64,000 bases of DNA from Vermamoeba vermiformis. Taxonomy: Eukaryota. The DNA lies in assembly GCA_045837725.1 (NCBI GenBank), contig JBEWZL010000102.1, positions 1 to 64,000 on the forward strand, in the 5' to 3' direction. The notes under the pieces were generated by a model that searched no databases, was not told the origin of the DNA, and saw nothing but the letters and a program-made list of their open reading frames with translations. A program made the position numbers and the translations under genes. Shown one piece after another: positions 1,389 to 56,272 of this stretch; positions within the stretch are counted from its first letter, which is position 1, and every line of letters starts with the position of its first letter.

Positions 1389-4300
1389 TTATACAATTTG
1401 ACTACTCAATCTTCGTGATGACCTTGGACTGTTGCTTATGAAACTAATTATTTGGTATGAATTGATTTCTGGTTCTTGAGGTGTGTTTGTTATCATCAAC
1501 CGGCTATTTTCCTTGATGATCTTCTTGTACATTTTTTCTTTCTTGAGATCACTCTGTCTGCGAACATGTTTCATCGTTTCCCGCGAGACAGCGGTGGGAA
1601 TCTCGTAAATCTCACATCGACCCATAGCCACATCACGGAGGAATTTTGACGCCTTAATTGACGGTGTCAGTACTCATCATACCAAATAATTAGCAGGAAC
1701 ATACCTGTTCGCCAGTCTCATCAATTAGTCGTGAGAAGTTGCCGCGCTTGATTAACAGCTCTTTGGGCGAATCAAATTCAACAATCTTGCCTTTGTCCAT
1801 GACCATGATTTTAGTCGAATCAATGATCGTGTACAACCGATGAGCAACCGTCAACACAGTGCAGTTGCCAAAACATTGTCGAATCGTCTGTTGCACCAGT
1901 TTGTCGGTTTCAATATCCATAGCCGCAGTCGCCTGTAAACAATTTATTAGGGTAAAGAACTATTATGTTAACCTGCGTTACGTACCTCGTCCAACACTAA
2001 AATCTTCGGTTTTCGTACAATTGCACGAGCAATACATATTAATTGACGTTGACCAACGCTGAAGTTATCGCCGTTCTCTTTGACGAGAGCATTCAACTTT
2101 TCGGGAAGATCTTGCACCGTCTTTTTCATTTGAACCTGAAGTCGGTGAGCAACGCAATTTTTTAAATTAAAGCATGTTTCACTTACTCTCTCGAGAGCAT
2201 CCCATATTTCACGATCAGTGTATTGATCGAACGGATCCAAGTTGAATCTGATCGTGCCCGTGAACAAGACAGGTTCTTGCGGAATAATTGCCAATCTCGA
2301 TCGCAAGTCATCGAGTCCAATCTCCGTGATGTCCACGCCATCAATAATAATGCTGCCACTCGTAGGCTCCATAATGCGGAACAACGTCATGCCTAAAGTT
2401 GACTTGCCAGCGCCTGTACGGCCCACAATACCAATCTTCTCTTTGGTCTTAACGGAGAAGTTGATGTTGTTTAAAGCAGCTGGTCCCGAGGACTTGTACT
2501 TCACCTCGACCTGGATGTTTTCGTTAACTAATGTAACTGGTGCACGACCGAGACTTACACCACGATAGGTAATATTTCCCTCAGTTGGCCAGTCTTTAGG
2601 CGGTCTGTTCTCTTCGATGATTCGAGGTGCCTCGCTGTTGAGAGTGCGCGTGTAATGGACCAAGCGCTCCACACTCGTCATCAAACTTTCGGTCTCTGCT
2701 GTCATTCGAACTGTTGCTGGCGGTTAGATTCATTCATTCTTTATACTGAGCGAGTATACTCACCGCTCCATTGGAAGACCTGCGACAATTGCAATGCATA
2801 TGATAAGGCCAAACCAGCAGCACTCGGAGTGATTTGATCTTGGAGCACGAGAATGAACACACCAGTGAGTGCCACGACAAAGGTGCTCATAACATCGAGG
2901 CGATAAGCCAACCATCTTGAAGCCATTTCAAACGCGAACAAGAATCGGTGATTGTTGTTGATGCGCTGAACTTCAATGCCTTCGAAACGATCGACAGCTT
3001 GAAATGCGCGAATAATGTGAAGACCTTGAAGTGTTGCCGACAAGTGCTCGACAATAGGCGATCTTGTGATGCTGTCCATTCGTTTCAACTCGCGAGAACT
3101 GCGTCGGTAATACGCCTGTGGCTTGTTAGCACGGCGTTCCAAATCCAACTGAAGTACTTACGCCAATGAACCAGAATAGAACGCCGAAGGGGACCAGACA
3201 GATGGTAAACCAAGGCAGCAAGACAGCGATCAGAATGAGAGTGCTCAACACGATGAGATTGTACTGCAGTGCTTGGAGGAGTGCGTCAGGCAGAAGATCA
3301 TCGACCTGATCTTGATCCTTCGAGAATCGGTTCAATATTCTGCCAGTCGGCGTTGAATCGAAGAAGCTGACTGGAGCACGCAATACTTTCTCGAACACAC
3401 CATTGTGCAGTTTTGTCGAAGCACCAATCGTGAAGTACGCAAACAATATGGCACGTGTCACGGTGACGACGATGAATCCCAACAAAATAGCGCCCATTAT
3501 AACTCCGAACCAATACAACGTACGCAGTTCAGCGATTGGATTTGATATCCAGTACGACAGATACCAATCTGAGGGTCGTTAGAGGAGACTAATAAATTGA
3601 GAGTAGTCTCTTACCATTAATCACACGAGCTGCCTGCACGATAATGAAGTAGATCAACAGCATGGCGCACAACCCGGCATTGCCAGCCTTGGCATAATCG
3701 CTAAATAGACGCGCACTCACACTGCAATACATCAGTTACTGGCTTTGTGCATTATAATTACACGTACCCTCCAAGCTGTCGCTCTTCGGTGGTCATTCGT
3801 TTGCCGAGTGCCATCAATTCTTTCGGATCCTTAGTCTCTAAATCACGAAAGACTTGACGGCTCAACACGTAATTGATGTGTTGCATTTGCGGTCGACGCT
3901 GTAACTTTGATTGTTTTCGTGGTGACATTTTCACACCTTCTAGCTTGCCTTCTTTGGTCTGGGCCTCTTCTGAAATGCTCTTAATATGATCGTTGACCAT
4001 CTGAGCAAAGTCCGAGCACGTGTACAAGAGATCATCGTACGTTCCAACAGCCTGTTATTGGTAATGAGTAATCGCAGCGAGAAAAACTTGTCATTCGACT
4101 AACCTGAATTTCACCGTTCTTCATGTAGACGATGCGATCACAGCGCGGCAAGAATTGAATCTGATTGTTGACGAAGACAATCGCCTTGTTGCGCAAATAA
4201 CCGCGGAACAAGTTCTCAAACAACTCGCGACCAACTTGCGAATCGACAGCGCTGAGCGGATCATCGAGCAGGTAGATATCTACAAGCAACATTAGCCAAA

Positions 4301-7010
4301 TTAGCATTACTAGGACTCTAGTTTTACCTGAATTGGCATAGACTGCACGAGCCAATGCGAATCTTTGTCGCTGACCGCCACTGAGACTGACACCCTTTTC
4401 ACCGACTTCTGTTTGATCCAGTGCGGGGAATCCTGCCAAATCGGGCAACAGTTGACAGAGCTCGAGAACGCGCAAGTAGCGTTCTTTCTCGTACGGCAGT
4501 CCGAACAAAATGTTGTTTTTGATCGTGTCGCTCATGAGCCACGACTGCTGACTGACGTACGCAGTTGTACCCTTGACCTTCACCGAGCCCTCCATCAACT
4601 TCATTTGGCCGAGCATAGCTTGCAATAAGCTCGTCTTGCCCGCACCAACACCGCCAACTACGGCCACAATCTCGCCAGCTCTGACTTTCAGATCGATCTT
4701 GCGCAAGGCCCCAGCTTGTTTGTTCATTTCAGCTACTGACATCACTTTGACTCGAGAGTTTCGAAACTTTGTGGCCAACATTGGAATGGCTCCGTGCCAG
4801 TTAAATCTGCCCTTGATCGTGATTGACTTCTTGGGGTTGTCTACCACAATCTGTCGATAGTCGGGTTGTTCTTGCTGTCTCAAAAACGAGTGCAGTCTAC
4901 CGAGTGCAATCTTCGATTCTAAATTTAACAAATGTGAATTGTGGATCCGGGTCTCAAAATCTTTTGATATTCCGCAATTGTTTTGCCGAAGATCTTACCT
5001 GCATAAGCTTTGATGCTGAGTGGCAAAGTGCTCAATGGATATCGTGCCACGTTGTAAAGACTCAGCACGGTAAATGCTACTGAAGCGGTCAGCTCTTGGT
5101 TGAGAGCAATCATGGTGAGAAATGTCACGAATGACACGAGCGCAGGGCCCACTAAAGACACGCTCTGGTTCAGTGACTTGATCATGCCAATAAAGCGGAG
5201 ACCTTCAACTTCTTCGTCGCGGATGTCGGTCACCTGGTTAACATTGCAATGTCAGCAAATCGGGATATCTTCCGAACCACGAGTTTTCGTCAAATAATTA
5301 TTCGAACAAAGAAAACTACTTACTCTGTCTGCGAAGCTTTGCTCCCAACAATACAATTTGACAACGCGAATTGCATTCAAAATTTCGCTCATTAACCGAA
5401 CTCGCTGATCCGTAACTTTGACAGTGGCTGCTCTTTGTGCGGAAATCTTCCTCGCGCTGACCATTTGAATTGGAAATAGCAATATTAATGCCGCAAATCC
5501 GACGGAGGCAGGAATAATTCCAATCTCAAATATCACCAATAAATACACGCCTAAAATTAAATTAAATAATTAAATTCGGTAAATCCCGAGTTTTACAAAA
5601 TTAAATTGATATAATTAATTCTTCGTACCTATGCATAATACTGGCGTTGCCCAAAAGAAGTGGAAAAATCGGAAGTACTCTGCGATGCGGTAACTGTCGT
5701 TGGCTTGCAAATTCAAAATTTCGCCCATCGTTGAGTCAACAGTGCCAACTCTAATAGCTTTACGATAAATCATCATCATCATGCCGGCTCGCATCTACAA
5801 TACGACGTATAAGTACAGCATTTTTAAGATTGCACAAATTTATCGAACACAAACTTACTCTAATACCGATCCGCACTGTCAAATAGAAGTGATAATGCAC
5901 GAAGGTGACTTGCAGTAGTGATTGCAAAAATAGGCCGATGACGTACAGCCAGCCTTCGTACACGGGCTTGGTGTCACGATTTTGAATAAATAATACGAGT
6001 TGTTTCAATAAATAGGCGGGTCCAAACAGCGCTAGACCACAATATAATAACATAAATAGGGCTGAGATTACGGTATCTGTGCGGCTCGCTCTGAAAAATG
6101 GAGCGAAAAAGGATTTCCTAAATAGGAAAAACGGAGATTAGGTTGGTTAATATTTAATTAAATTGTGATACTTGGAAAGGAGTAAAAGTAATCTGTTATA
6201 TCACGAATTAAAGCGATGCAAGTTTTCATTAATGTTGCGGACTCAGTTCCGAAACAGGATATTCTAATTCACTTGTGACGCGTGTTCCAAAAGGATCCAG
6301 TCCCAAATCATTGTGTCTCGTCACATAACACGGTAATTCTTTATGTTATCAATTTTGACGGCATAATAATTTGCTCTCATAAAATTGTGCATGCCGACAT
6401 CAAAATTTAATTAATTAAAAGATTTGCCGCTTCGATAAGTGACTCATACGAAACAAATACGTACTTTTTCTTGTCGGGGTGCATTTCTTTATCCCACTCG
6501 CGTTGCAATTTCGAAGCATTCTGTTCCGTATCTTCCTTTATGGGCAAATTCCACACATCCGCAGCCTGAAATTGAATTCCTAATTAATATCGCAATATTA
6601 AAGTATATGTGCAAGTAAGGCATTATAGTTTGAGGAAGGTTACCGTCAAGATTGCTGGATTGACGGTTATCGAATTTGAGACCGATTAATTATCATTAAC
6701 TTACGGACAACGGCCGCTTGTAACCTTTAGCCAGAATGCTACCAGCCCACCAATATGTGAATATTGAAAAAATATTCTTTTTGTTGTCAATCGGAGAAGG
6801 ACCGCCAGGCGCATCTAAATCCACCTCGACAAACCGATCTTGCCATTTCTTCTTTTTCTTCTTGCCTGAGTCCTTTTCCTCTTCTTCGCTGATAAGATAG
6901 GCCGCTGATACGTCTGTTGCTGTGAGACTGTCCTCGATCGCAGTCGATATAACTTCAGAGTTAGATCCCTCCAAACCAACCGTTGATCCGGCACTCGAAT
7001 TATCATCCAT
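1389..7010 (-). CDS. ABCC/MRP-family full ABC transporter (TMD1-NBD1-TMD2-NBD2), multi-exon
   Basis: NBD1 has [17 protein letters not shown] and [15 protein letters not shown]2 has [20 protein letters not shown]2 has [23 protein letters not shown] and ILVLDE. GT-AG introns lie between the ORF fragments. Confidence 0.93.
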
Positions 7011-8421: not shown

Positions 8422-11346
8422 ATGAGCTCGGTAACTTGGCGTTGGTGAGTATACACTAGATTGATTTAAATGAATGCATGTCACCAATTATGACGTACTG
8501 ATTCGCTCAATTATTTTTTTTACTTAAGCAATTGCAAGGCTAATTTTTATTGCGGAGTGACGATTGAGCAGACCTGCTTATTTGTCGGATGCCCATTAAT
8601 TACTTCACAATCTTTTTTTCAACTGCTGCTATTGATAAGTTGATGCTATTCTCCATATAACTAACTGTTTTATTTGACTAGCATTTTATTTTTTGTTTGT
8701 ATTGGGATGGTGCAACACCAGATCCGCGCTGTTTTATACGCGCCCAATCTCTCAGTGCCCCGTCATACATTAGCTGTTGCTGCATTACCTGGCTACATCG
8801 TATTTGCAGGAGGTACCACTACCCCAGATTCATCGGACGCGGTTGCAACGGTCGACATCTACGACACAGTTTCGGGAAAAAATTTTACGAGCAATTTATC
8901 GGCACCGAGGCGTCAACTAGCCGGTGCAGCATACGGCACCAAAGTTTACTTTGCCGGAGGAATCTCCGATAGTGGCCCCTCGGATGTCGTGGACATTTTT
9001 GACGTTACTTTGCAAAGTTGGACTACGGCACATCTTTCTCAAGCTAGATATCTTCTGCAAGCAGCTACCGTGGCCAACAAAATAATATTTGTGGGCGGAA
9101 GGATCAATTCTTCATTGGCCTCGGATGTGGTCGACATCTACGATCCGATCAACAACATCTGGAGCGCAACAAGCCTTCTTGTTCCAAGATACAGTTTTGG
9201 CATTGCTGGTTCCAGCACGTACGGGCTAATTGTCGGTGGTTACGTGCAAATCGGCTCTGCCATTACGACGCCTGCCTGGATCGAGCGCTTCAATCCTGTT
9301 ACGAATCAGATGGAACAATTTGACCTCAACTATCCTTCCGGCCTCGTCGCTATAGGTAGTGCTCAAACCAACTCGCCCGAAGAGTTGATGTTATTCGCCG
9401 GTGGCTATAATGGCGCGATTTCCCCGCTGTTGGAGCTCTTTTACCCTAACGGCACTTTCTACGGCAACGCGACCATGATCACCCCTCGCATTCTTCCGAC
9501 TCCAGTGTGTTTTCCTGGCACGTGCTACATTGCCGGTGGTGCGGACACTGGCTTCATCGACAAGCTAAACGCGAGCAGTATAACGCTCAGCCTGGCCAAG
9601 ACGGACTACATCAGATACTATGGCAGCGGTGCCTTTGATGGCAACGACACAGTCGCAGTGGGTGGAGGCTTCAACAGCAATGGTCTCATCAGCGCAATCG
9701 AAGTAACGCGCATGCAAAGGATACCGTACAAGCCGTACAATGTGGTCATTCAACCATACACCGCACTTGTCCCGTTCATTTACTGGGACGCTAACATTGC
9801 CTTCACTACCAACTTCACCGTCGAAAGATGGGTCAGCAGCGATCCTCAATGGCGCCACTTGGAAACGATGTCGGCGCAGTACTATTTCACTTTCGATGCT
9901 GGCTTGGAATACAACACCACATACCGCTACAGAGTGGTCGCTATTTCTGACACGGGCATTTCTGCAACCTCCAACGAGTACGCTGAATTTGTTACCCCGA
10001 ACATCCCTGTGCCTCCGACACCCACTGCCATTCAAGCTATTGTTTCGTCGAACAACACTATTGTCATTTCATGGACCCTTGGTGCAGTTAACAAAGACGA
10101 AGCGAACATGACATTTGTTATTATCGAGAGAACAGTTGACTTGGCTGAGAATTTCACCGAAATTGGCCGTGTCTTGGCCCCCACGTCTACATTCACCGAT
10201 GAACAAGATCTTCAAGTCAACGTCACGTATTATTACCGCGCCTATGCTCAAGCCACGTTCCGCTCGGAATACTCTAATGTTGTTTCAGCTACTTTGTCGC
10301 CACCACCAGAAATTCCGCCAGCAGACCCTGGTCAGATTGTTGGTCCAACACCACCCGACGTAGCACAAATAGTCCCCGGAGTTATCATTCCCATTGTTGT
10401 GGTCGCCGTTGCCATCATTGTCTTGCTCGTGCTGCTTCGTCGAGGCAAGCTCCGCAAAGTCAGTTTCTTCGCCAAACTGGAATACTTGGTGTTCTCAAAC
10501 AAGACTTTGTCGCTCAACATTGACCTCGCAAACACCGCGATTGCTGAACGCCTTCACATTCCGTATGCAGAACTGACCATGATCAAACAAATTGGCATGG
10601 GAAGCTACGGAGAAGTGTATCTCGGAGTTTGGAAACAAAGTCACGTGGCCATCAAATTCTGCAAACGATCATTGGACATTGACGAGTTCCTTCGCGAAGC
10701 TGAAGTCATGTTGGCCATCAGACCTCATCCGAACATTGTGCAAGTCCTCGGTGTCAGCACTGATGGACCACAGATTGCCCTCGTGCTCGAGTTCTGTCAA
10801 GGAGGCAGTTTGGACACTCTGTTGTTCGACAAAGAAGACGAAATCAGCCCCGCCCAAAGAATCAAACTCGCTGCAGGCATTGCAGCAGGCATTTATCACC
10901 TGCACCAGAGCAACATTGTGCATAGAGATTTGGCATCGCGCAACGTGTTGTTGACAGGTGACAATCAGCCCAAGATTGCCGACTTTGGCATGTCAAGATT
11001 GCTTCAAACGGACAAAGACACTGGCGCTACGAAGTCAGACACGGGACCAATTCGATGGATGGCTCCGGAATCTTTGCGCGACAAGAGTTACAGCACCAAG
11101 TCAGACGTGTGGAGTTACGGCATTATTTTGTACGAGTTGGTTTCAAGACAAGAGCCGCACGTCAGCGAAGATCCATTGCAAGTCGGAGCCAAGATTCGTG
11201 ATCAAGGCTATACTCCCACGATCCCCGCTGACTGTCCGCACGTGTTGAAAGAAATTATGGAGAGTTGTTGGCGCTTCGAGCAAGCAGATCGACCCGACTT
11301 TGCTGAGATCTGCAACAAATTGAATGCTGCTGCTGCTACTTTGTAA
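8422..11346 (+). CDS. Receptor tyrosine kinase(-like): signal peptide, Kelch repeats, 2x FN3, TM, kinase
   Basis: Micro-exon MSSVTWR(TG) at 8422-8444 and intron 8445-8681 (GTGAGT..CTAAC..TAG) join the 890-aa ORF in frame. Kelch repeats (FAGG..VDIYD), FN3 (YRYRVVA, YYYRAYA), TM IIPIVVVAVAIIVLLVLL, and kinase motifs GMGSYG, HRDLASRN, DFG, PIRWMAPE. Confidence 0.92.
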
Positions 11347-12887: not shown

Positions 12888-15205
12888 CTAATTTACAGCA
12901 GGAGTTTCTTGCGGCAAGCTAACGTCATTTTGAAACTGTTGAGCGACGCCGATCGTGTGCTTGATCAGTGCGTCGGTTACAACGCCTCCCTCTTTCTTAG
13001 CCAAGGCTTGGGCAAGACGTACTGCGTTCTTAATTTGGCGACCGTTCAATTCAAACTTCGCGAGGTCATTCACATTTACGGATTTGATCTCGGTGTAGTC
13101 AAAGAAAGTCTTCCAGATCTGCTCGCGAGCTTCTTCGTTCAAATCATCGTACTTCAGAGCAACTGAAATACGACTGTGGAACGCGCTGTCGAATGACTTG
13201 ACTCTGTTTGTCGTCCTGGAAAGTTCGTTAGATCTCGTGCTGAAGGCAAGTTCATACTGCGTGCTGTACTTACAAGAACAATACACCTTGGTGGTACTCC
13301 AATAGACGCAAGAAGATACCAACCATGGCATTTCTCTTGATGTCTTGTTCAGTTCTGCGCTCTAAGAAGATGTCTAAAAGGAACATTTTAGACCGCCTGT
13401 CCCGATCATGCTCTGAGGGTTAGAATTCGTAAAGCGAGACGTACCTGCTTCGTCCAACAAAACAACGGCCTTCCAGGTCGATGCTACTTCAAGAATCTCT
13501 CGCAGTTTGTCTTCTAACTCTTGCGTGTTCGTGCCCAACTCACCGACAGACACGGAGTACAAAGGACGATGCAGCAGCTCTGCAATAGCCTCAGCAGTCA
13601 AGGTCTTACCAACACCCGGTGAACCGTGTAACAAGAAGATGCAACCGCCTGAGAGAGGTAGATTAGTATTTGAGGCTAGATCTCGTGAATGGCACCGCAC
13701 CTCCTTTGCCGGAAATGATGTCCGAGAAAGTCTTGTCTTGATTTTCAACGAGGGCACGAATGAGCTCTTTCTTGGTGGCCGACAACACGAGTCTATCAAA
13801 GGCACCATCGTCGAATTCAATGCCACTGATGTTGTCCACGGTCAGCTCACCCCACTTCTTAGCTGAGAAGCTGAAGCCGAGCAAAGTCGGCCAGCACATA
13901 AAAAGTGCCTGGGTAGGACGAGGTTAATCGTTTGCTATTGGGTGCACTTGTCCCACAACGTACCTGATCGCTCAAGTGATCCACGTAGTTGGAGTTACGA
14001 CCGCCAGAAACAAAATCTTGGTGATTGTAGTTGGGATTCATGCGTCTGAAACTAGCACCATCGAGCATAATACGACCATCAGCCTTGAAGTACGTCAAGT
14101 TGAACCACGATTGGCGGAACAACGCGCCCTTGAATTGACGGTAGTGATTGCCCTGCAGTACGGCGTTAGTACTCCTCCTGTATGGTATGTACTATGAATA
14201 TTACTTACAATTGCCAGCTCGCGGAATTTCTCACCACGGACGGTCAAATCCTTCAACGTTTCGTCATCCATTGGCACGACAGGCAGCTCACTGAGCTTCT
14301 TGGCGCCTTTGAACTCCATGATTCTGAACTGCTTCGTGTGATTCACGAACTGACCGCCGTTGCTTTGCACGACTTGACCGACGATTTGGAAGAAGCTGAA
14401 GAACATGGTTGACTTGTACTCGAACGAGATCACTTCAGATCCGATCTTGCAACCCGATGCTTCGTCCCAACCGTAGAACTTTGAGCCTTTCTTGAACAAA
14501 TACCAGACAGTCGAATAAGTGATCTTGTTCTCGGCGAGCATTGCTTCAATCTTGGCGGAGACGGGGCCGAACTCTGCATCGAGCCATTGCACCAAAGTGT
14601 AAGCAACGTGTGACTTGTCATCGCGCATAAACTCTTTGAATTGCGGCAAAAAGACTAATAACTCGTGCGCTTGAACTTTAGGCGTTAGCTCGTAGAACAC
14701 ATCCAGACCCGTTTCGTCGCGCAACCAAAAGCGAAGTTCCTCGTCTAAAAACAGGAAGGAAAAATTAATATGCATTAGTACTAGTCGGTTACTAGTTGTC
14801 AGTTTAACGGACAGCAAAAGTAAATCTGAAGTTCATCAAAATAAGACTTGCAGAAATAATGTTGGAAAAAATACCTAAAATATGGACCATAACTCTAGTT
14901 TCGATAACCTCGCCCGTTTCCTTGTCTGTAATATCCTTCTTTTGGATCTCGAATTTTGGCTTTTCTTTATTTTCTTCTGGCTCGTCTTCGTTAACGCTAA
15001 CATCATCGTCATCGTTGATGATAGGCTCTTCTCTATCAGGATTAAGCGCAGGCGGAACTGGCTTATTCTGTGCAAGTTCTCGAGAGTCGATCTGACTGGC
15101 AGGATTTGGCTGGTGCTTGGCAGACAACGAAGCCAAAGCAGTAGTTATCATCCATAAACACAATTCCAATACCTTGACCGCAAGTTCCGTGATAAAGCCC
15201 TTCAT
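12888..15205 (-). CDS. AAA+ ATPase, single AAA domain with long N-terminal region, of the type common in fungi
   Basis: Walker A HGSPGVGKT, Walker B VVLLDEA, TTNRVKSFDSAFHSRI, lid ELNGRQIKN, upstream GFSFSAKKWG..F(DR)LVL; multi-exon. Confidence 0.9.
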
Positions 15206-33642: not shown

Positions 33643-35435
33643 CTAAAGCTGACCAAGGCAGTTGGTCTTTGCATTCCATATCGGCATCGCGACCAACATA
33701 ATGAAGAACCACCACTGGACGGACAACGACCAGTTGATCCATTGCTTCATGCCCGCCGAGCGCGCGAACAAATCAGGTGCGACAGACTTGCAGCAACGGA
33801 GAAATGCAAATCTGGCGCATCCAAAGGTGAAGAACGTGAAGCAGACGTGAATCAAGTAGGCTTTGAGATTGAAGTAGGAGTAGGCCGACTGCCAAGGAGT
33901 GCCGAGTATGAACAAGAGGATGTAGACAACTGAACCAATTGTGCAGATTACACGTGGCCGAACGAGTCTTAAAAACTTGTGCAAGAGTGCGAGTTCCATG
34001 TGCAGCGGTAGTGGGAAGATCAAGAAGACGTTCATCAACCACCAGCCATAGCTCGGCACTAACAGACCAAGTGCAGCACCCACTGACATTAGCGCGAACA
34101 TCCACAGTGCAGGATCTTGTGAGCGTGGGTGGTCCAACATTGTTATCACTAATCTTTGTAGGAGATAACCGCCATATGTGGCCACCTTATCTAGGAAGGA
34201 CCGACTACTGAAGGGCTCGGCGTATTGTTGGCAATCAAGAGTTATCTGGCGATGCCTGCCAATGAGCCAATCTTGGACCTGATGATAGAGCAAACAGCAA
34301 CCCACTACAACGACCACACAGCCAATAAGTTGATACACTATATGTTCCACTCGAGCTATGTAAGTTATTTGTTAGTAATTATCCCTAACTCGCCTATCTA
34401 CTTACACAAAGAGAGCAATTTAGTCCGATCCACCAGCCGAACTTGATGTACGATACAAGGTTGATTCCTCGCAAAAAATCCGCCATTAGTGATGAGATCG
34501 TAGGTACAGCCTGCTCTAAATATGCCTTCGAGAGGATAGTAAGCGAGATCTAAGCGTCGATCGGCTCTCTTGCTGATCACGATTTGGTGTGGACCCAGCC
34601 AACCATCCACAACGTTAAACCTCCACTTCGTAGGGGTATTTATATGCGCTATAGCTCGTATTCGAAGTGCTAACCTAAAAGGAAAAACATTTGGAAAAGT
34701 GGGCTAGTATTTGAGCTCAGTAGGTACGTACCTCTCATCCGCTACAAACGCAGGAAGAAGCGGAAAAAAGGAAGCATAGTCCTTGAACTCATATATTCTC
34801 CAACGTTGCGCGTCTTCAATAAGCCATCTTTTTGGATAGTTCGCCTGCAGATCAAGAAAATTAAGGTCAAATCTGGAACTCGATCTTGCCAGTTGGTAAA
34901 CTCAATGACATACTGGATATGTTCGATGTACTAGCCACTCATCATTGACTGCTTGTCCAATCGTTAATTCGAGTCCGAGTGCGGTTGCTTTCAAAGACGA
35001 AAGCCTGCGTAGCGGATCATCAGTAAGAACGTAATCAGTTTCTAAATTAGACCTTACGTTTGCTCGATAATGGCCTCCTTCATGTTCTTCGAACTAATGA
35101 AATAGTTCCAATACTTGCTGACGCCTACACAAGTTGAGATCGCTTTCGCATCCAACAATGAGAAAATTGTTTCGAGTATTTCCTGAGAATAATTATATTA
35201 AAAATCATCTGTATAATTTTCAAGCATTCGATATTTCCAATTAACTAATTATTTAATTTCAAATAAAGGAACTTACTTTTGGCAACTGATCCAGAGGCGC
35301 GTTTGAAGGCAATGACGAACATGTTACCTTGGCGAAGGAAGAATGCTGAACATGAGCACGATTAATGCGTCTTCTATGCGAAAAGAAGAGCAGAAAGCTG
35401 CAGATAACCAATGAAACCAATACGGGCAGTAGCAT
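33643..35435 (-). CDS. N-terminal TM + F-box + polytopic membrane domain protein, paralogue A
   Basis: MLLPVLVSLVICSFLLFF..; F-box PLDQLPK|EILETIFSLLDAKAISTCVGVSKYWNYFI; ANYPKRWLIEDAQRWRIYEFK; multi-TM last exon (ORF 33643..34350). Confidence 0.8.
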
Positions 35436-35782
35436 TGCCAGATCGTCGACGAGTCGTAAGTAGAGTTGTTGAAGCTTTGTTGTTGAATTTAAACAAGTTA
35501 AATTAACACTAGGATAGCGTACTGTGGTACACGTACTGACAAACTAAAACAATCTAAATATAGAGCCGAATTATTTTTTCGTTGCCAGTACGCGCTAATC
35601 AGCTCCTTCCGCAAGAGTTTCAGGAGCCTCGTCAATTGTTGCATCTGTTACCATTGCTGCTGGCTTAGTAATATTCGCGTAGATTTGGTTAATACAAATA
35701 GATCTCGCGAGGAGATGCTTATCAAAACGAAGTTTATTTGATCGCGACAAATGGTCAACACATGAGACAAGTTTGTCATGCG

Positions 35783-37660
35783 TCATCCAAATACGAACAT
35801 ATCAAGACAATTAATATATGGAAGTACCAATGGTAATATAAGCATGAAAGAGAACCAGAACTTGACGGGCAATGACCAATTAATCCATTTCTTCATCGTT
35901 CGTGATGTCGCGTATATACTCGGAGCCATTATTCTGCAAGCAACGACGTACACCATTCTAGCGTAGCCAAATGTGAAGAAGACAAAGCAGGTGTGAATCA
36001 GGAGCGACGTGATGTTGATGCCAAAGTAGAGCAGCGAAGCAGTACATAGGAAGAGAATAGGACTGAGCGTGGTTAGTACGGCCAAATTCGCAAATTTACG
36101 GCGTCTAGCGTCTCTGTAGAGTGCACGGAACCAAGTTGATTCGTGTGGAAAGCAATAAAAGCTCAGTGCCGCGCCGATCCACCACTCGTAAGTTGGGAAG
36201 TAGAATACTAAACCGAAGAATAGGCCAAGAGTTAATGTTAACCACAATCCAAGTTTGTACTTCCTATTAGGCACATCGCTCATGAACTGCATGTAATGCG
36301 CTACTGTTGAGATGTTCTTGAGTAGCACGTATAAGGTGAGAAATAGGACAACATTTACAACGGTAGAGCTTGTGGAGTTTCGTGAGCAAAACGGGTACCT
36401 GTCTGGCGGCACGAGTGGCGTTGTTGTGGCTCGCGTGGATAAAATAAAATTGGCGAGAATGACCGACCAAATCACGTCGCAGAACAACATTGCACCGTAC
36501 ATCCAACAAAGAGCGCGCAATAGTTGGGCTCGAAGAGGCAGTCTATCTATAATAGGACGTGCCCTTAGTGAAGGTGCATCATAAAATTGTGGATAACTTA
36601 CTATAGAGTCGATTGCTAGGTCCATCAAGTGGTCGGATGACATGGATCAAAGGTTGGTTCTGACCATAACTGAAGAATACCGGTTTATCGCTAATGATGT
36701 CATACTTCTTATCGACTTCGAATTCATCTTCATCCACCGGAAAATAAGCCCATTCGCTAGATCTGGATGGAAATTTACGGATCGTAAGCTTCCGAAAACC
36801 AAAATCCCGATTTTCCATTTCGAAGCGCCAAAATTTAGCATTTTGTCCAGTGGCTTTTACTCTTATTCGAGAAGCCAATCTATATATAATGTTTTTAGTT
36901 TCAGTCCACGAAGGATGGAATTGTTAGTTCCTACCTCGGATCTTGTGCAAAGTGTGTATGCATTTGATTCGCTCCGATAATATATTTGAAACTATATATT
37001 TGCCATCGTCGACAATCTTGAACGATCCATCGCTTCGGATAGCTCGCCTTAAACAAAACTTTAAGATCTCTTGCAACAAATTAGAATTGGACAAAACGTA
37101 CCGGAAATTCGAGCTCCTCGAGTATAATATCCGGTGCCATACCACCAGTTATTTGGTTAAGAGTTGCGTAGTTCGTCTTTAGGGATGCGATCCTTACGTA
37201 CGTGGGTCAGTTATCGGTAGAAAACCTGCAACTACTTACTCTCGATCATATATCTCATCTTGTAGCTTCCTCTCACTAATTACAAAGTTCCAGTACTTGC
37301 TTACTTTAACACAATGCGAAATGGCTCGTGCATCCACAAACTGAAAAATAGTTTGCAACATTTCCTGAAAATAATTTATTAGCCTAGCTATATTTTGCAT
37401 AGCGATGTTCGATAAAATTCTAAATTGAAATAATTATTTGACATTTTATTTTTTATTACCTTTGGCAACTGATCCAAAGCCGCATTTGAACGAATAGGAG
37501 TCTTAGCATATAGAGGATTTTGTAGCCTCTTTTCTTTCAATTTACGCTTTAGAAATAATAATCCATAGATGGCTCCAACCGAGATGAGAAAGGCAGTCAA
37601 GAAGATCGGTCGCAGCTTTAAAATCGTAAGCAAGAAAGGTAAATAATCTAGTACTATCAT
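35783..37660 (-). CDS. N-terminal TM + F-box + polytopic membrane domain protein, paralogue B
   Basis: TM PIFLTAFLISVGAIYGLLFL; F-box ALDQLPK|EMLQTIFQFVDARAISHCVKVSKYWNFVI; ASYPKRWIVQDCRRWQIYSFK; last exon has about 7 hydrophobic segments and shares LIHxCFxFFTFG and MKxWINWSL with paralogue A. Confidence 0.8.
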
Positions 37661-37970
37661 ACTGCGTTTGACATTAAAAATATAACTAAATGTAAGTGTC
37701 TCGTTTTTGTCCAAAGCCCACGTCATTCCTTGCTCGGTCTAGCAAAATGATTATCTTTATTTAAGCAAGAATGTATTCATTGCGATGATACCATTAGCAT
37801 TATATACAAGTTACAGTTGTCAATGTTTTGTAGCGTTGCCGGGATTCTACAGCAGATTCTTTTCACTGAAAGCACGTGTAGCGACCCCAAGATTCGGTTT
37901 AAGAAATGTGACCTATTTATTAATATTTATCAATTTTACGGAAAGCAACAACGCTACTTTATCTCACGAA

Positions 37971-40635
37971 ATGACTTCAGGCGATAAAATAGTGGCGAGA
38001 TCGAACTCGATCGGAATTGCTCTCGTTCTTGCCAGCATCATTTCCTGCTGTTTTGCGGCACTTCCGTACACCGGAGTCAATTTGAGCGGCGCTGAATGGA
38101 GTGAGTAATCTATATTTGCTATAGGAACTGATCTAACTCGAGATCAAAAATTCTGTTAACTAAAAACACCTTCAAAAAATTACTTTTATCACTATTTTCA
38201 TCATTATAACTTGCCTCCGTAATATTATGATATTTCTTTACCACTAATACTATGATTTGATTTTAAAGAGAGGAAACAGCAATTACAACGAAGTTTTTAC
38301 TGACCAATTTCGCCTTATTCGCTTATTAATAAGATCGTTTTATTTAGCATCTGGTCCTTACTGGCCTACTACTCAAGAGATTGATTTCTTCGCGTCTCGT
38401 GGAATGAACACGATCCGACTTCCTTTCTCGTGGGAGAACATCCAGCCAACTGCTTCCAGTAACTTCGATGCAACTACGTGGGGTCGATATACTACTCTAG
38501 TCGATTATATTACCAAGACTAAGGGTCTTTATGCAATTATCGATGTTCACAAGTAAGATCCAGATAATGCCTCGCAAAATTATTGTTAGTAACCGCTTCA
38601 TAATTAGCTACGCACGTTATAACAATCAAATTGTTGGCCAAGATGTATCATTGAACGTATTGCTCGATCTTTGGACTCGTCTCGCTAATTACTACAGAAC
38701 AAACGACAAAGTGGTAAGTTGTTTTCAGAATCCGCCTTCCTAATTCGAAACTTGTTAATATAATCATGATAGATCTTCGGCATGATGAACGAGCCTAATA
38801 CGATGTCGACAGCGTAAGTAGAATTCCAATTTAGATACGCGTTACTGTCAAGTTTTGATACTTTACAGACTGTGGGCAAACAATGCAAACTCGACCGTTA
38901 AAGCTATCCGAGATACTGGTGCTACGAATATCATCTTGGTGCCTGGTAACCAATACCTATATTATCATATCGGACGAACAGAAATTAATCCGTTTCGAAT
39001 TACCTTTTATAGGCAACGGATGGACCGGAGCTTGGACGTGGAACGCTACTTGGCCCGATTCATTAGGTCAAACATCCAATGCTGAAGCGATGTTAATTGT
39101 CGTGGATCCACTCGACAAAATGATCTTTGAGTTCCATCAATACTTCGGTACGGTGTCACGTGACCTTTTGAAACCAAATCAAGTAATTACTAATTATTAT
39201 AGATGCGGATTCGAGTGGTACTAAACCTCCATGCGGTGCTCGTCCTCTTGGTAAGCAAAATCAGATCTGATTTGAAAAAATTGACACGTGTCATGGTAGC
39301 TGTTCCGAGAGTTTCAGTCGCCACTGATTGGTTGAAGAAGTACAACAAGAAAGGTTTCTTGGGAGAACTCGGCGGCTCTGATCAACAGAACTGTCTTGAT
39401 GCTATTAACGATGCGTTGACTCATTTGGAGGCTAACAGCGATGTCTGGTACGACATTACTGATTTTGACACTTTGACACGTGTCACACCAAATCGATAAC
39501 GAATAAGGAAATTCTAATTCAATCATGTCTTATAGGATGGGTTGGACTTATTGGTCAGGCGGTCCTCGTACGAGCACGGCATTTTTAGCGATCGGTCCTC
39601 TCGGTTATCCTCCAATTCAAAACGCGCAGTTGGACACGTTGTTGAACTACGTGACTAACCCTATTGTCAGTTTTGTCTATCCTAACATATGTAAGGCCCC
39701 AATGAGACTATTCTTAATCGGTTTCTAATACATTTTGCAGCTGCCTCTTCGTGCAACAACTCGCCGGATCTGATCATTTACGATGACGCCTTGCAAAACG
39801 GTTGGGCAGATTAGTACGTTATTATCTTTGCAAATGTTTTAATCGTTCATGAACGACATTTTCACTGAAATCCGTTTAATTTTAGTGGCTGGGCTGCTTC
39901 ACGAACATTCACAAGTAACCAAGCCTCAACGGGCACTTACGCGATCAGCTTCAACTCTGCGCAAAATTTTGAAGGTCTTTCATTGGCCAACGCGGCAAAA
40001 TTCTCGTTCACGAATTACAATGCCATCCAATTTGACGTCAAAGGAGCAACAGCGGATGTGAGCTACGAGATTTTCTTGAATGACGGACAGACCTCCCCCG
40101 GCAGATCTCAAGCGTTGAGAGGCTACACCCCGTCACATTCAATCACGACGAGCTATCAAACTGCTGTTGTGCCCTTCTCGGTCTTTCATCTCGATAATTC
40201 TCAGCAATTTGTGTCCATTACGTGGCAAAGCGTAAGTAACCAAAAATTGACTATTGCGATGTGGTACTTATCATGTGTTATATTAGGCTGAAAATACTCA
40301 AGATACGCTTTTTTTGGACAACATTAAGCTCGTCTGCAGGGACATCAGTAAGATCTGGATCGAGATTGAAATTGATTTGCATTACTAATCATTATTAAAT
40401 ATAGCCGGTGGTGTTGTCTCTGGTTCTAGTAGCAGTTCTACTCCTAACACCGGTGGCAACGGTTCGTTATCAGATCCGTTACAAAAAATTTGTTCTTTTA
40501 GAATTAATTATTCGTGGTTATTATTTAGGCCCTTCAAGCACCAATTCTCCTTCGAGAGTTTCAAGCGCTTCGTTGTCTCTCATTAGCTCTTTCGTCGTTC
40601 TCATTGCTGCTTCTGTAACAGCTCTATTGTTGTAA
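37971..40635 (+). CDS. GH5 endoglucanase with CBM-like domain and GPI-type tail; copy 2
   Basis: GVNLSGAEW, MNTIRLPFSWE, IFGMMNEP, FEFHQYF, GFLGELG, GWTYWSGG; intron positions largely match copy 1; tail SSASLSLISSFVVLIAASVTALLL*. Confidence 0.9.
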
Positions 40636-54273: not shown

Positions 54274-55850
54274 ATGAATAGTTTGTATAATTCGTGGGGC
54301 GGTAATTATAGCTCGGAAATACCGTTTCCTAATCAGATGCCAAGTCCGATGCATCCCACAGCTAATACAGAACTGCCTGGCTTCAGAATTAACTTGCCGC
54401 CAATGAATATGACGACTACATTACCTCCCATGCAGCCTTATTTGCATGTTCATAGCCCTCACGAGGAATTAACTTCGAGCGGACCACATCTAACGCTTGC
54501 TGAACAAGAACTGGCCTTATTTACAGCATTATTAAATGGCTATTCTAAATGCGAGGTCACTGGACTCGATGGACGCGATCAAACACTCAATCAAGTGCAG
54601 AATCTGTCGATAGACAAACAGAACTCATTACTTTATCAATTTCAGATCGGTTCTTTACACGATCCAGAAGTGTAAGTAGCCAGAGAAACATTGCTAATAT
54701 TTAAAATATTACTATATAATTAATTTTATCAGTCTTTAATCCGCAAAAAGTATTTTTCAACCAACTCTTCCGCGTTGCAAGATCCATATTTTATACTAAG
54801 AATCTTTCTTGTGATGCGCAAGTTAAAAATTATCTTTGGTACTAAATTATGACCGTTAAAGCGCTACACCGGTAAATTCGTCGTTTTATTTGACACAAGT
54901 CAAAAATGCCAATTCACTACGACGCGATCTGAATAAATATTGTGTTCTGACGCAAATTAAGGCCTAATAAAGGTCATTATTCATCACATTTATTAAAAGA
55001 GATTAAATCGCATCGTGGTCATGCGGAACAGCGATCATTTTCCCGTTTCTGATCAGATTTTACACTTTATTGCTTTTGCTGATCTGTTTATCATAGCCGC
55101 GAAGTGTTCAAATGCCTGCGCGATGTGCTATGGGCTGAAACGAAGCACCAGGAGAATTTATTGAACGAAATCACGATTTGGTGCAATAATCAAATAACAG
55201 ACATGAAAAGATCTTTGTATCCATCAGAAGACAAAGCGAGTTCATTAGGCAGATCGGTAAGTAATGCTTATATACATATCATGTCTATTATTAGCAGGTG
55301 CGGATGAATTAATTGGATTGGTTTTTAGGGTATTCCCTCTCCATCTGCAACGCCGTCCCCACCAACGCGCCACTATAAAGGTCGTAAAAGAAACTTGCCC
55401 CCTCACGCGACAGCGGCCCTTAGAAAATGTACGTATCTCTTTGATATTGTTTTACCATTGCGTTGTAAAAGCGCGGATCTTCCTTTTATGGAAAAACGCC
55501 GGTACCTTCCTTGGCCTCGCACGTAGAGACGTCCTAACAGCGCATTATTTTAAAGGGTTATTTGAACATACGGAAAATCCTTATCCTACGGAAGACGAGA
55601 AGCAATTATTAATGCAACAAACCAATCTAAATTTGAAACAAGTCAATAACTGGTTTATCAACGCTAGACGTCGAATTTTGAAACCAGGCGGCGAAGGATT
55701 AAATGGTGATATTAGTCCGAGCATGATGGACGAGAAGCATTTCGGCGCCAATTTATTTTCGGTAAGTTGCAGATTCGTTCATCGAACGGTTTCAGATGTT
55801 GTTAATCATAATATTATTGCTAGGATGATCATAATGCCGAGGACTCATAA
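54274..55850 (+). CDS. TALE-class homeodomain transcription factor with MEINOX/KNOX-like N-terminal domain
   Basis: [60 protein letters not shown] (PYP loop, WFINARRR); upstream [31 protein letters not shown]. Confidence 0.92.
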
Positions 55851-56272
55851 GTCAGGCTTCGTTGTAATGTACATACCTTAAACCATTTCCAGTTTCGTTT
55901 TATTTATTGGGATCTTGCTCCAACGCAATCCAACTGTAGTAATAAATTTGTTCATAAATTGTGAACGCGTCACTTATCGTACCAAGTCCAATGAACTATT
56001 AAAGCCTCCGATTAGGCCGGATCTTCCGTACGTAAGTTGCAACTTCGTGAGGTCGGTACTTAAACATTCATACCGAACTTTCATATCGTTACAGCAAGGT
56101 AAAAATAGTACGACTTCATATTTGGTCGTCATTCTGGTACAGGTGCTAAGAATGAAATTCATTGAACCAACTATGCCACGTGCTTGCCTTATTTGTAACA
56201 ACTTAACGCCACGAACTTTCTTTTGAGACCTTTTTCAATCAAAAACCTTTACTCAAACACACAAACAACAAC

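Follow-up and report, generated by a model that had tools for sequence, protein, structure and literature searches.

SCF (Skp1-cullin-F-box) ubiquitin ligases owe their specificity to F-box proteins, which are regarded as soluble adaptors. In human and yeast, those that reach membranes do so by lipid anchors, as for FBXL2, or by peripheral binding, as for Mdm30 and Mfb1, and to our knowledge no polytopic F-box family has been described in animals or yeast. A tandem pair of genes from the amoeba Vermamoeba vermiformis departs from this scheme. It is located at positions 33643-37660, on the minus strand, of a stretch of 64,000 nucleotides (GenBank assembly GCA_045837725.1, contig JBEWZL010000102.1, positions 1 to 64,000 of the forward strand), hereafter called the window. 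Each gene very probably encodes, within one gene product, a membrane anchor, an F-box, a conserved middle region and about seven further membrane segments.

The comparison with described systems brings out likenesses and differences. As in canonical F-box proteins (PF12937/PF00646, e.g., FBXL2), the hydrophobic core and the tryptophan positions are present, as is, on reading by eye, the L-P motif, the score against the hidden Markov model (HMM) of the domain exceeds the cut-off, and a further region sits C-terminal of the F-box, at the place usually taken by a substrate-binding domain. Unlike canonical F-box proteins, those encoded here have none of the known partner domains (WD40, LRR, Kelch or others) in Pfam and carry both an N-terminal anchor and about seven membrane segments in the same polypeptide. 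Pfam, AlphaFold2 and database searches were all run exon by exon, domains spanning several exons, the middle region above all, being tested piecewise. The membrane RING E3 ligases Hrd1, Doa10/MARCH6 and the transmembrane RNF proteins (review: PMC4021871) likewise combine a cytosolic ligase module with a polytopic domain, one that could recognise substrates in the membrane. Whereas they carry a catalytic RING, the proteins described here carry an adaptor F-box and would need Skp1, a cullin and Rbx1, and Pfam reveals no sequence relationship between both groups.

Proteins that join an F-box to a multi-pass membrane domain are rare, and their design is unstudied. Phrase searches of the open literature found no paper on transmembrane or membrane-anchored F-box proteins, and broader searches showed nothing pertinent among the matches listed. 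TMEM183, which has an F-box-like annotation, was found only within gene lists in the literature text available to the search. The word "transmembrane" is absent, by term search, from the main text of a survey of Dictyostelium F-box proteins (PMC9485057).

Spliced models of both genes were built from GT..AG boundaries on the minus strand, and the locus extends from the stop codon of gene 2 to the ATG of gene 1.

35783..37660, minus strand: gene 1, 523 amino acids in six exons, open from ATG to stop when spliced
37660-37460, 37364-37240, 37192-37102, 37047-36935, 36879-36602 and 36546-35783, minus strand: exons 1 to 6 of gene 1, the last one with the stop codon
33643..35435, minus strand: gene 2, 489 amino acids in six exons, open from ATG to stop when spliced
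35435-35277, 35182-35058, 35004-34914, 34844-34732, 34674-34406 and 34355-33643, minus strand: exons 1 to 6 of gene 2, the last one with the stop codon

The open spliced frames of the two models measure 1572 and 1470 nucleotides. Each gene contains five introns of 47-95 nucleotides, all ten bounded by GT..AG, and the frame of the upstream exon hits one to six stop codons in every one of them (10/10). Thus, the reading frame is open only after splicing. The G+C content amounts to 0.43-0.47 in exons versus 0.31-0.33 in introns. The initial annotation, made from the letters of the sequence and its open reading frames, had pointed to an intron pattern shared by the two genes, and this pattern proved to extend to identical codon positions and phases of the introns as well as to equal lengths of exons 2, 3 and 4 (125, 91 and 113 nucleotides). 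All the motifs that it quoted are also present in both genes, namely LDQLPKE(M/I)L..TIF...VSKYWN, YPKRW(I/L)..D..RW.IY.FK, LIH.CF.FFTFG.AR and MK.WINWSL. Identity between the paralogs amounts to 28% over the membrane exon and 31% over exon 5, and a tblastn search of both models against the window found no third copy.

The F-box is split by the first intron in both genes.

37240..37477, minus strand: F-box of gene 1, comprising LDQLPK from the last codons of exon 1 (37477-37460), an intron of 95 nucleotides and exon 2 (37364-37240)
35058..35294, minus strand: F-box of gene 2, comprising LDQLPK from the last codons of exon 1 (35294-35277), an intron of 94 nucleotides and exon 2 (35182-35058)

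The translation of exon 2 alone (41 amino acids), covering profile positions 7-40, passes the Pfam gathering cut-off of PF12937 (F-box-like, 24.3 bits) with 25.6 bits for gene 1 (E-value 1.1e-5) and 26.6 bits for gene 2 (E-value 5e-6). With PF00646 (F-box), for which the cut-off is 20.5 bits, gene 1 stands below it at 19.7 bits and gene 2 above it at 22.6 bits. The L-P motif at profile positions 1-6 corresponds by eye to the LDQLPK ending exon 1, in-frame with exon 2 in both genes. Against the PDB, the sole sequence match of gene 2 exon 2 is the F-box of FBXL2 (chain 6o60_C), a weak one with an E-value of 0.42. By the HMM test, both proteins are thus assigned to the F-box domain family, in agreement with what had been read from the letters alone.

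Membrane segments flank the F-box and the middle region on both sides, with an anchor at the N-terminus and a block encoded by exon 6.

37550..37606, minus strand: N-terminal anchor of gene 1, residues 19-37, followed by KRKLKEKR (Kyte-Doolittle 19-residue mean 2.37)
35379..35435, minus strand: N-terminal anchor of gene 2, residues 1-19, followed by HRRRINR (Kyte-Doolittle 19-residue mean 2.56)
35783..36546, minus strand: membrane block of gene 1 (exon 6), about seven segments carrying Y(E/G)WW, an RRRK loop, LIH.CF.FFTFG.AR and KKWINWS
33643..34355, minus strand: membrane block of gene 2 (exon 6), counterpart of that in gene 1

The Kyte-Doolittle scans recovered the anchor announced for both proteins, and the count of about seven segments in the block held when hydropathy was averaged by column over an alignment (A1) that combined both exon-6 translations with six relatives, the second segment being weak in gene 2. 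Across these eight sequences, the invariant residues are the WW pair, the L and H of LIH, one R, one P, the W..WS of KKWINWS and one L. For gene 1, an in-frame ATG located 22 codons upstream (37724-37726, minus strand) offers an alternative start, and the charge argument given below is unaffected by such a longer N-terminus.

The side of the membrane on which the F-box stands can be predicted from the distribution of charges. According to the positive-inside rule, basic loops favour the cytosolic side. The basic clusters come after, and not before, both anchors. Over the eight aligned sequences, which include two near-duplicate pairs, the three loops lying on the same side as the F-box contain 102 lysines and arginines among 570 residues (0.179), versus 27 among 401 (0.067) in the four stretches on the opposite side. 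The clusters following the anchors and this bias of the loops together predict that the F-box is on the cytosolic face, which disfavours a luminal F-box, an outcome that the initial annotation had named as fatal to its reading. In the topology predicted by this rule, both termini are outside, the F-box and the middle region are cytosolic, and seven more spans follow. Conserved cysteines occur in the first and last outer stretches of most sequences, a placement that would fit the exoplasmic side. A membrane block of only six segments would move the C-terminus to the other side but leave the F-box where it is.

The stretch that links the F-box to the membrane block is encoded by exons 3-5 and is kept between the paralogs.

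36602..37192, minus strand: middle region of gene 1 (exons 3-5), about 160 amino acids, exon 4 carrying YPKRW...RW.IY.FK
34406..35004, minus strand: middle region of gene 2 (exons 3-5), 31% identical to gene 1 over exon 5

This region had been described as a conserved domain of no recognised type, and the description stands, as the paralogs share about 160 amino acids that belong to no Pfam family. Exons 1, 4, 5 and 6 gave Pfam matches at chance level only. The exon-5 piece alone was modelled by AlphaFold2 with six strands at low confidence, the predicted local distance difference test (pLDDT) being 47, and the ESM Atlas provided no usable match for exon 5. A degenerate DNA pattern designed on the exon-4 motif had 0 matches in JGI metagenome contigs.

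The AlphaFold2 model of the membrane exon of gene 1 is all-helical (pLDDT 62, predicted template modelling score 0.51). Foldseek found no match to it in the PDB at an E-value of 0.001 or less, every row having an E-value above 3, and the best ESM Atlas score for the membrane exon, 0.79, does not constitute a match. VIA-align was run against 48,161 chains, Z values below about 13 being uninformative for helical bundles. Its best Z of 6.0, common to a THATCH domain and XKR9, is at noise level. XKR9 (7p16_A) was aligned over 171 residues with Z 6.0 and a root-mean-square deviation of 5.3, and XKR8 (8xej_X) over 173 residues with Z 5.4, both below the informative level. G-protein-coupled receptor rows reached Z 4.5-4.9, which for helical models is likewise noise, and Pfam yielded no match to seven-transmembrane receptor families.

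Relatives of the membrane block are few. A phmmer search with exon 6 of gene 2 returned 6 matches at an E-value of 0.001 or less among 1.84 billion representative proteins. Two proteins derived from short NCBI contigs are near copies of exons of the window: P0002 shares 97% identity with gene 2, and P0001 shares 96% with exon 6 of gene 1, for which it was the sole match in a near-length search. P0003 is more distant (37% identity by the database search, 31% on alignment); it is an open reading frame from the EukProt set of Vermamoeba vermiformis, where it lies on a Trinity transcript, and its origin in a transcript assembly indicates transcription of a relative of the membrane block. P0004-P0006 derive from Logan assemblies. 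The relatives are 184-245 amino acids long, similar to the membrane exons of the window (236 and 253 amino acids); given this exon-sized length, none of them displays a full-length protein. Among longer proteins (444-2000 amino acids), a word-indexed search with gene 1 exon 6 or with the eight-sequence alignment retrieved nothing, which is weak evidence. Scanning JGI metagenome contigs with the alignment gave 74 pattern matches, 0 of them confirmed, and IMG/VR viral contigs gave 13, again with 0 confirmed. The membrane block is nearly an orphan, and the family is small and lineage-restricted.

Splicing between the middle region and the membrane block was found in one transcript-like contig. 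This contig of 243 nucleotides from run X1, presumably an RNA run, aligns to the window with no mismatches and skips the 55 nucleotides of positions 36547-36601, which end in CT..AC on the plus strand and thus in GT..AG on the minus strand. The gap coincides exactly with the predicted intron 5 of gene 1, and exon 5 (middle region) is joined to exon 6 (membrane block). The initial annotation had conceded that separate transcripts for the F-box and membrane exons would undo its proposal; the contig excludes this for the joint of exons 5 and 6 of gene 1, whereas the other joints rest on frame logic. Another X1 contig, of 435 nucleotides (35901-36335), differs from the window at 6 positions, unlike the identical spliced contig, and run X1 may contain more than one strain or allele.

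A mechanism can be proposed on this basis. A tandem duplication would have given rise to two polytopic membrane proteins exposing a canonical F-box on the cytosolic face. In each of them, a short exoplasmic N-terminus would be followed by a signal-anchor helix, the cytosolic F-box, a cytosolic and probably beta-rich region of about 160 amino acids, and a seven-segment bundle ending outside. The F-box would dock Skp1-Cul1-Rbx1 onto the membrane, while the middle region, the bundle or both would pick neighbouring membrane or membrane-proximal proteins for ubiquitination. Recruitment of Skp1-Cul1-Rbx1 appears the likeliest role because of what F-box domains are established to do. Such a membrane-resident SCF substrate receptor, whose orientation, ligase function, class of substrates and binding of Skp1 are all putative, is proposed tentatively, at somewhat less than an even chance.

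Several points weigh against this proposal. The middle and membrane domains match no family or fold in Pfam, the PDB or the ESM Atlas, and gene 2 shows weak hydrophobicity in the second of the membrane segments. The relatives cover the membrane exon only, and the fusion with an F-box is known from this window alone. Transcript support concerns one joint out of ten, leaving those between exons 1-2, 2-3, 3-4 and 4-5 of gene 1 and all those of gene 2 without RNA, and the status of X1 as an RNA run is itself a guess. The RNA-seq runs X6, X7 and X8, bearing the same species label, gave 1, 0 and 0 reads, respectively, which is no test of expression. Moreover, some F-box proteins, such as yeast Rcy1, function without a cullin.

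The substrate receptor could go further than an adaptor held at the membrane. In an extended form of the proposal, which we consider unlikely, the proteins would form an undescribed family whose seven-helix bundle, with its invariant His, Arg and Trp, reads a substrate, ligand or lipid in the bilayer and steers cullin-RING ubiquitination. If true, the family would be the F-box counterpart of membrane ligases of the Hrd1/Doa10 type, or a receptor signalling directly via SCF recruitment.

Conversely, the bundle may be the working part of the protein, as a transporter, channel, lipid-handling protein or receptor, and the F-box may recruit SCF for the ubiquitination, turnover or sorting of the protein itself. 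The most conserved residues of the family over eight sequences do lie in the membrane block (WW, the H of LIH, R, P and W..WS), auto-ubiquitination is common among F-box proteins, and XKR9 and XKR8 had the most aligned residues in VIA-align, yet within noise. However, the bundle has no family or fold match to a transporter or channel, and the conserved region of about 160 amino acids occupies the usual position of the substrate-binding domain in F-box proteins. We consider this self-directed role unlikely. A role without cullin has a rather slim chance: Skp1 would be bound in the service of membrane trafficking or of the assembly of complexes, in the manner of the yeast Skp1 complexes with Rcy1 and RAVE, which are not SCF. 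That the protein is membrane-embedded and that the F-box is its only recognisable domain would suit such a function, whereas the sequence holds nothing separating SCF from non-SCF use and Pfam shows no similarity to Rcy1-type domains. Least probable is an artefact, either of the gene model, with the exons for the anchor and F-box belonging to a different gene from the membrane exon, or of a cleaved signal peptide leaving a non-functional luminal F-box: although one joint out of ten has RNA support and the hydrophobic stretch of gene 2 begins at residue 1 like a signal peptide, paralogs only 28-31% identical still share the six-exon frame logic with codons split at the same places, all introns contain in-frame stops, the models needed no in-frame ATG-led alternative, and both the basic residues after the hydrophobic stretch and the charge bias of the loops fit a cytosolic F-box.

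The surroundings of the pair are eukaryotic, the window being characterised by short GT..AG introns and a G+C content of about 0.41. The draft genome of V. vermiformis CDC-19 is reported with 41.7% G+C, 3.5 introns per gene and 14,852 scaffolds, the N50 being 7.6 kb (PMC7125106). Besides a mitochondrial carrier gene, the neighbours include the following.

1971-2723 and 4035-4994, minus strand: ABC transporter ATP-binding domains (PF00005, E-values 2.3e-30 and 5.4e-18), probably exons of one full-size ABC transporter
8665-11343, plus strand: Kelch and kinase protein in one frame of 893 amino acids (PF01344, E-value 2.3e-12; PF07714, tyrosine/serine-threonine kinase, E-value 1.2e-73)
14098-14832, minus strand: DUF7025 frame (PF22942, E-value 3e-17)
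52924-53559, plus strand: Cdc14/SIN component (PF08045, E-value 3.9e-9)
55261-55878, plus strand: TALE-class homeobox (PF05920, E-value 1.1e-19)

Just upstream of gene 1, a frame on the plus strand (38248-38556) contains an IRLPFSWE motif, which occurs in family-5 glycoside hydrolases.

The general reach of a small, lineage-restricted family is limited. It nevertheless illustrates how much of the protist F-box repertoire is devoid of a recognisable substrate domain. A polytopic F-box protein would put SCF specificity inside the membrane, a role known mainly for the RING ligases of the endoplasmic reticulum and endosomes. Vermamoeba hosts Legionella and giant viruses, which bring their own F-box proteins, and host membrane F-box proteins could, speculatively, matter in this interplay.

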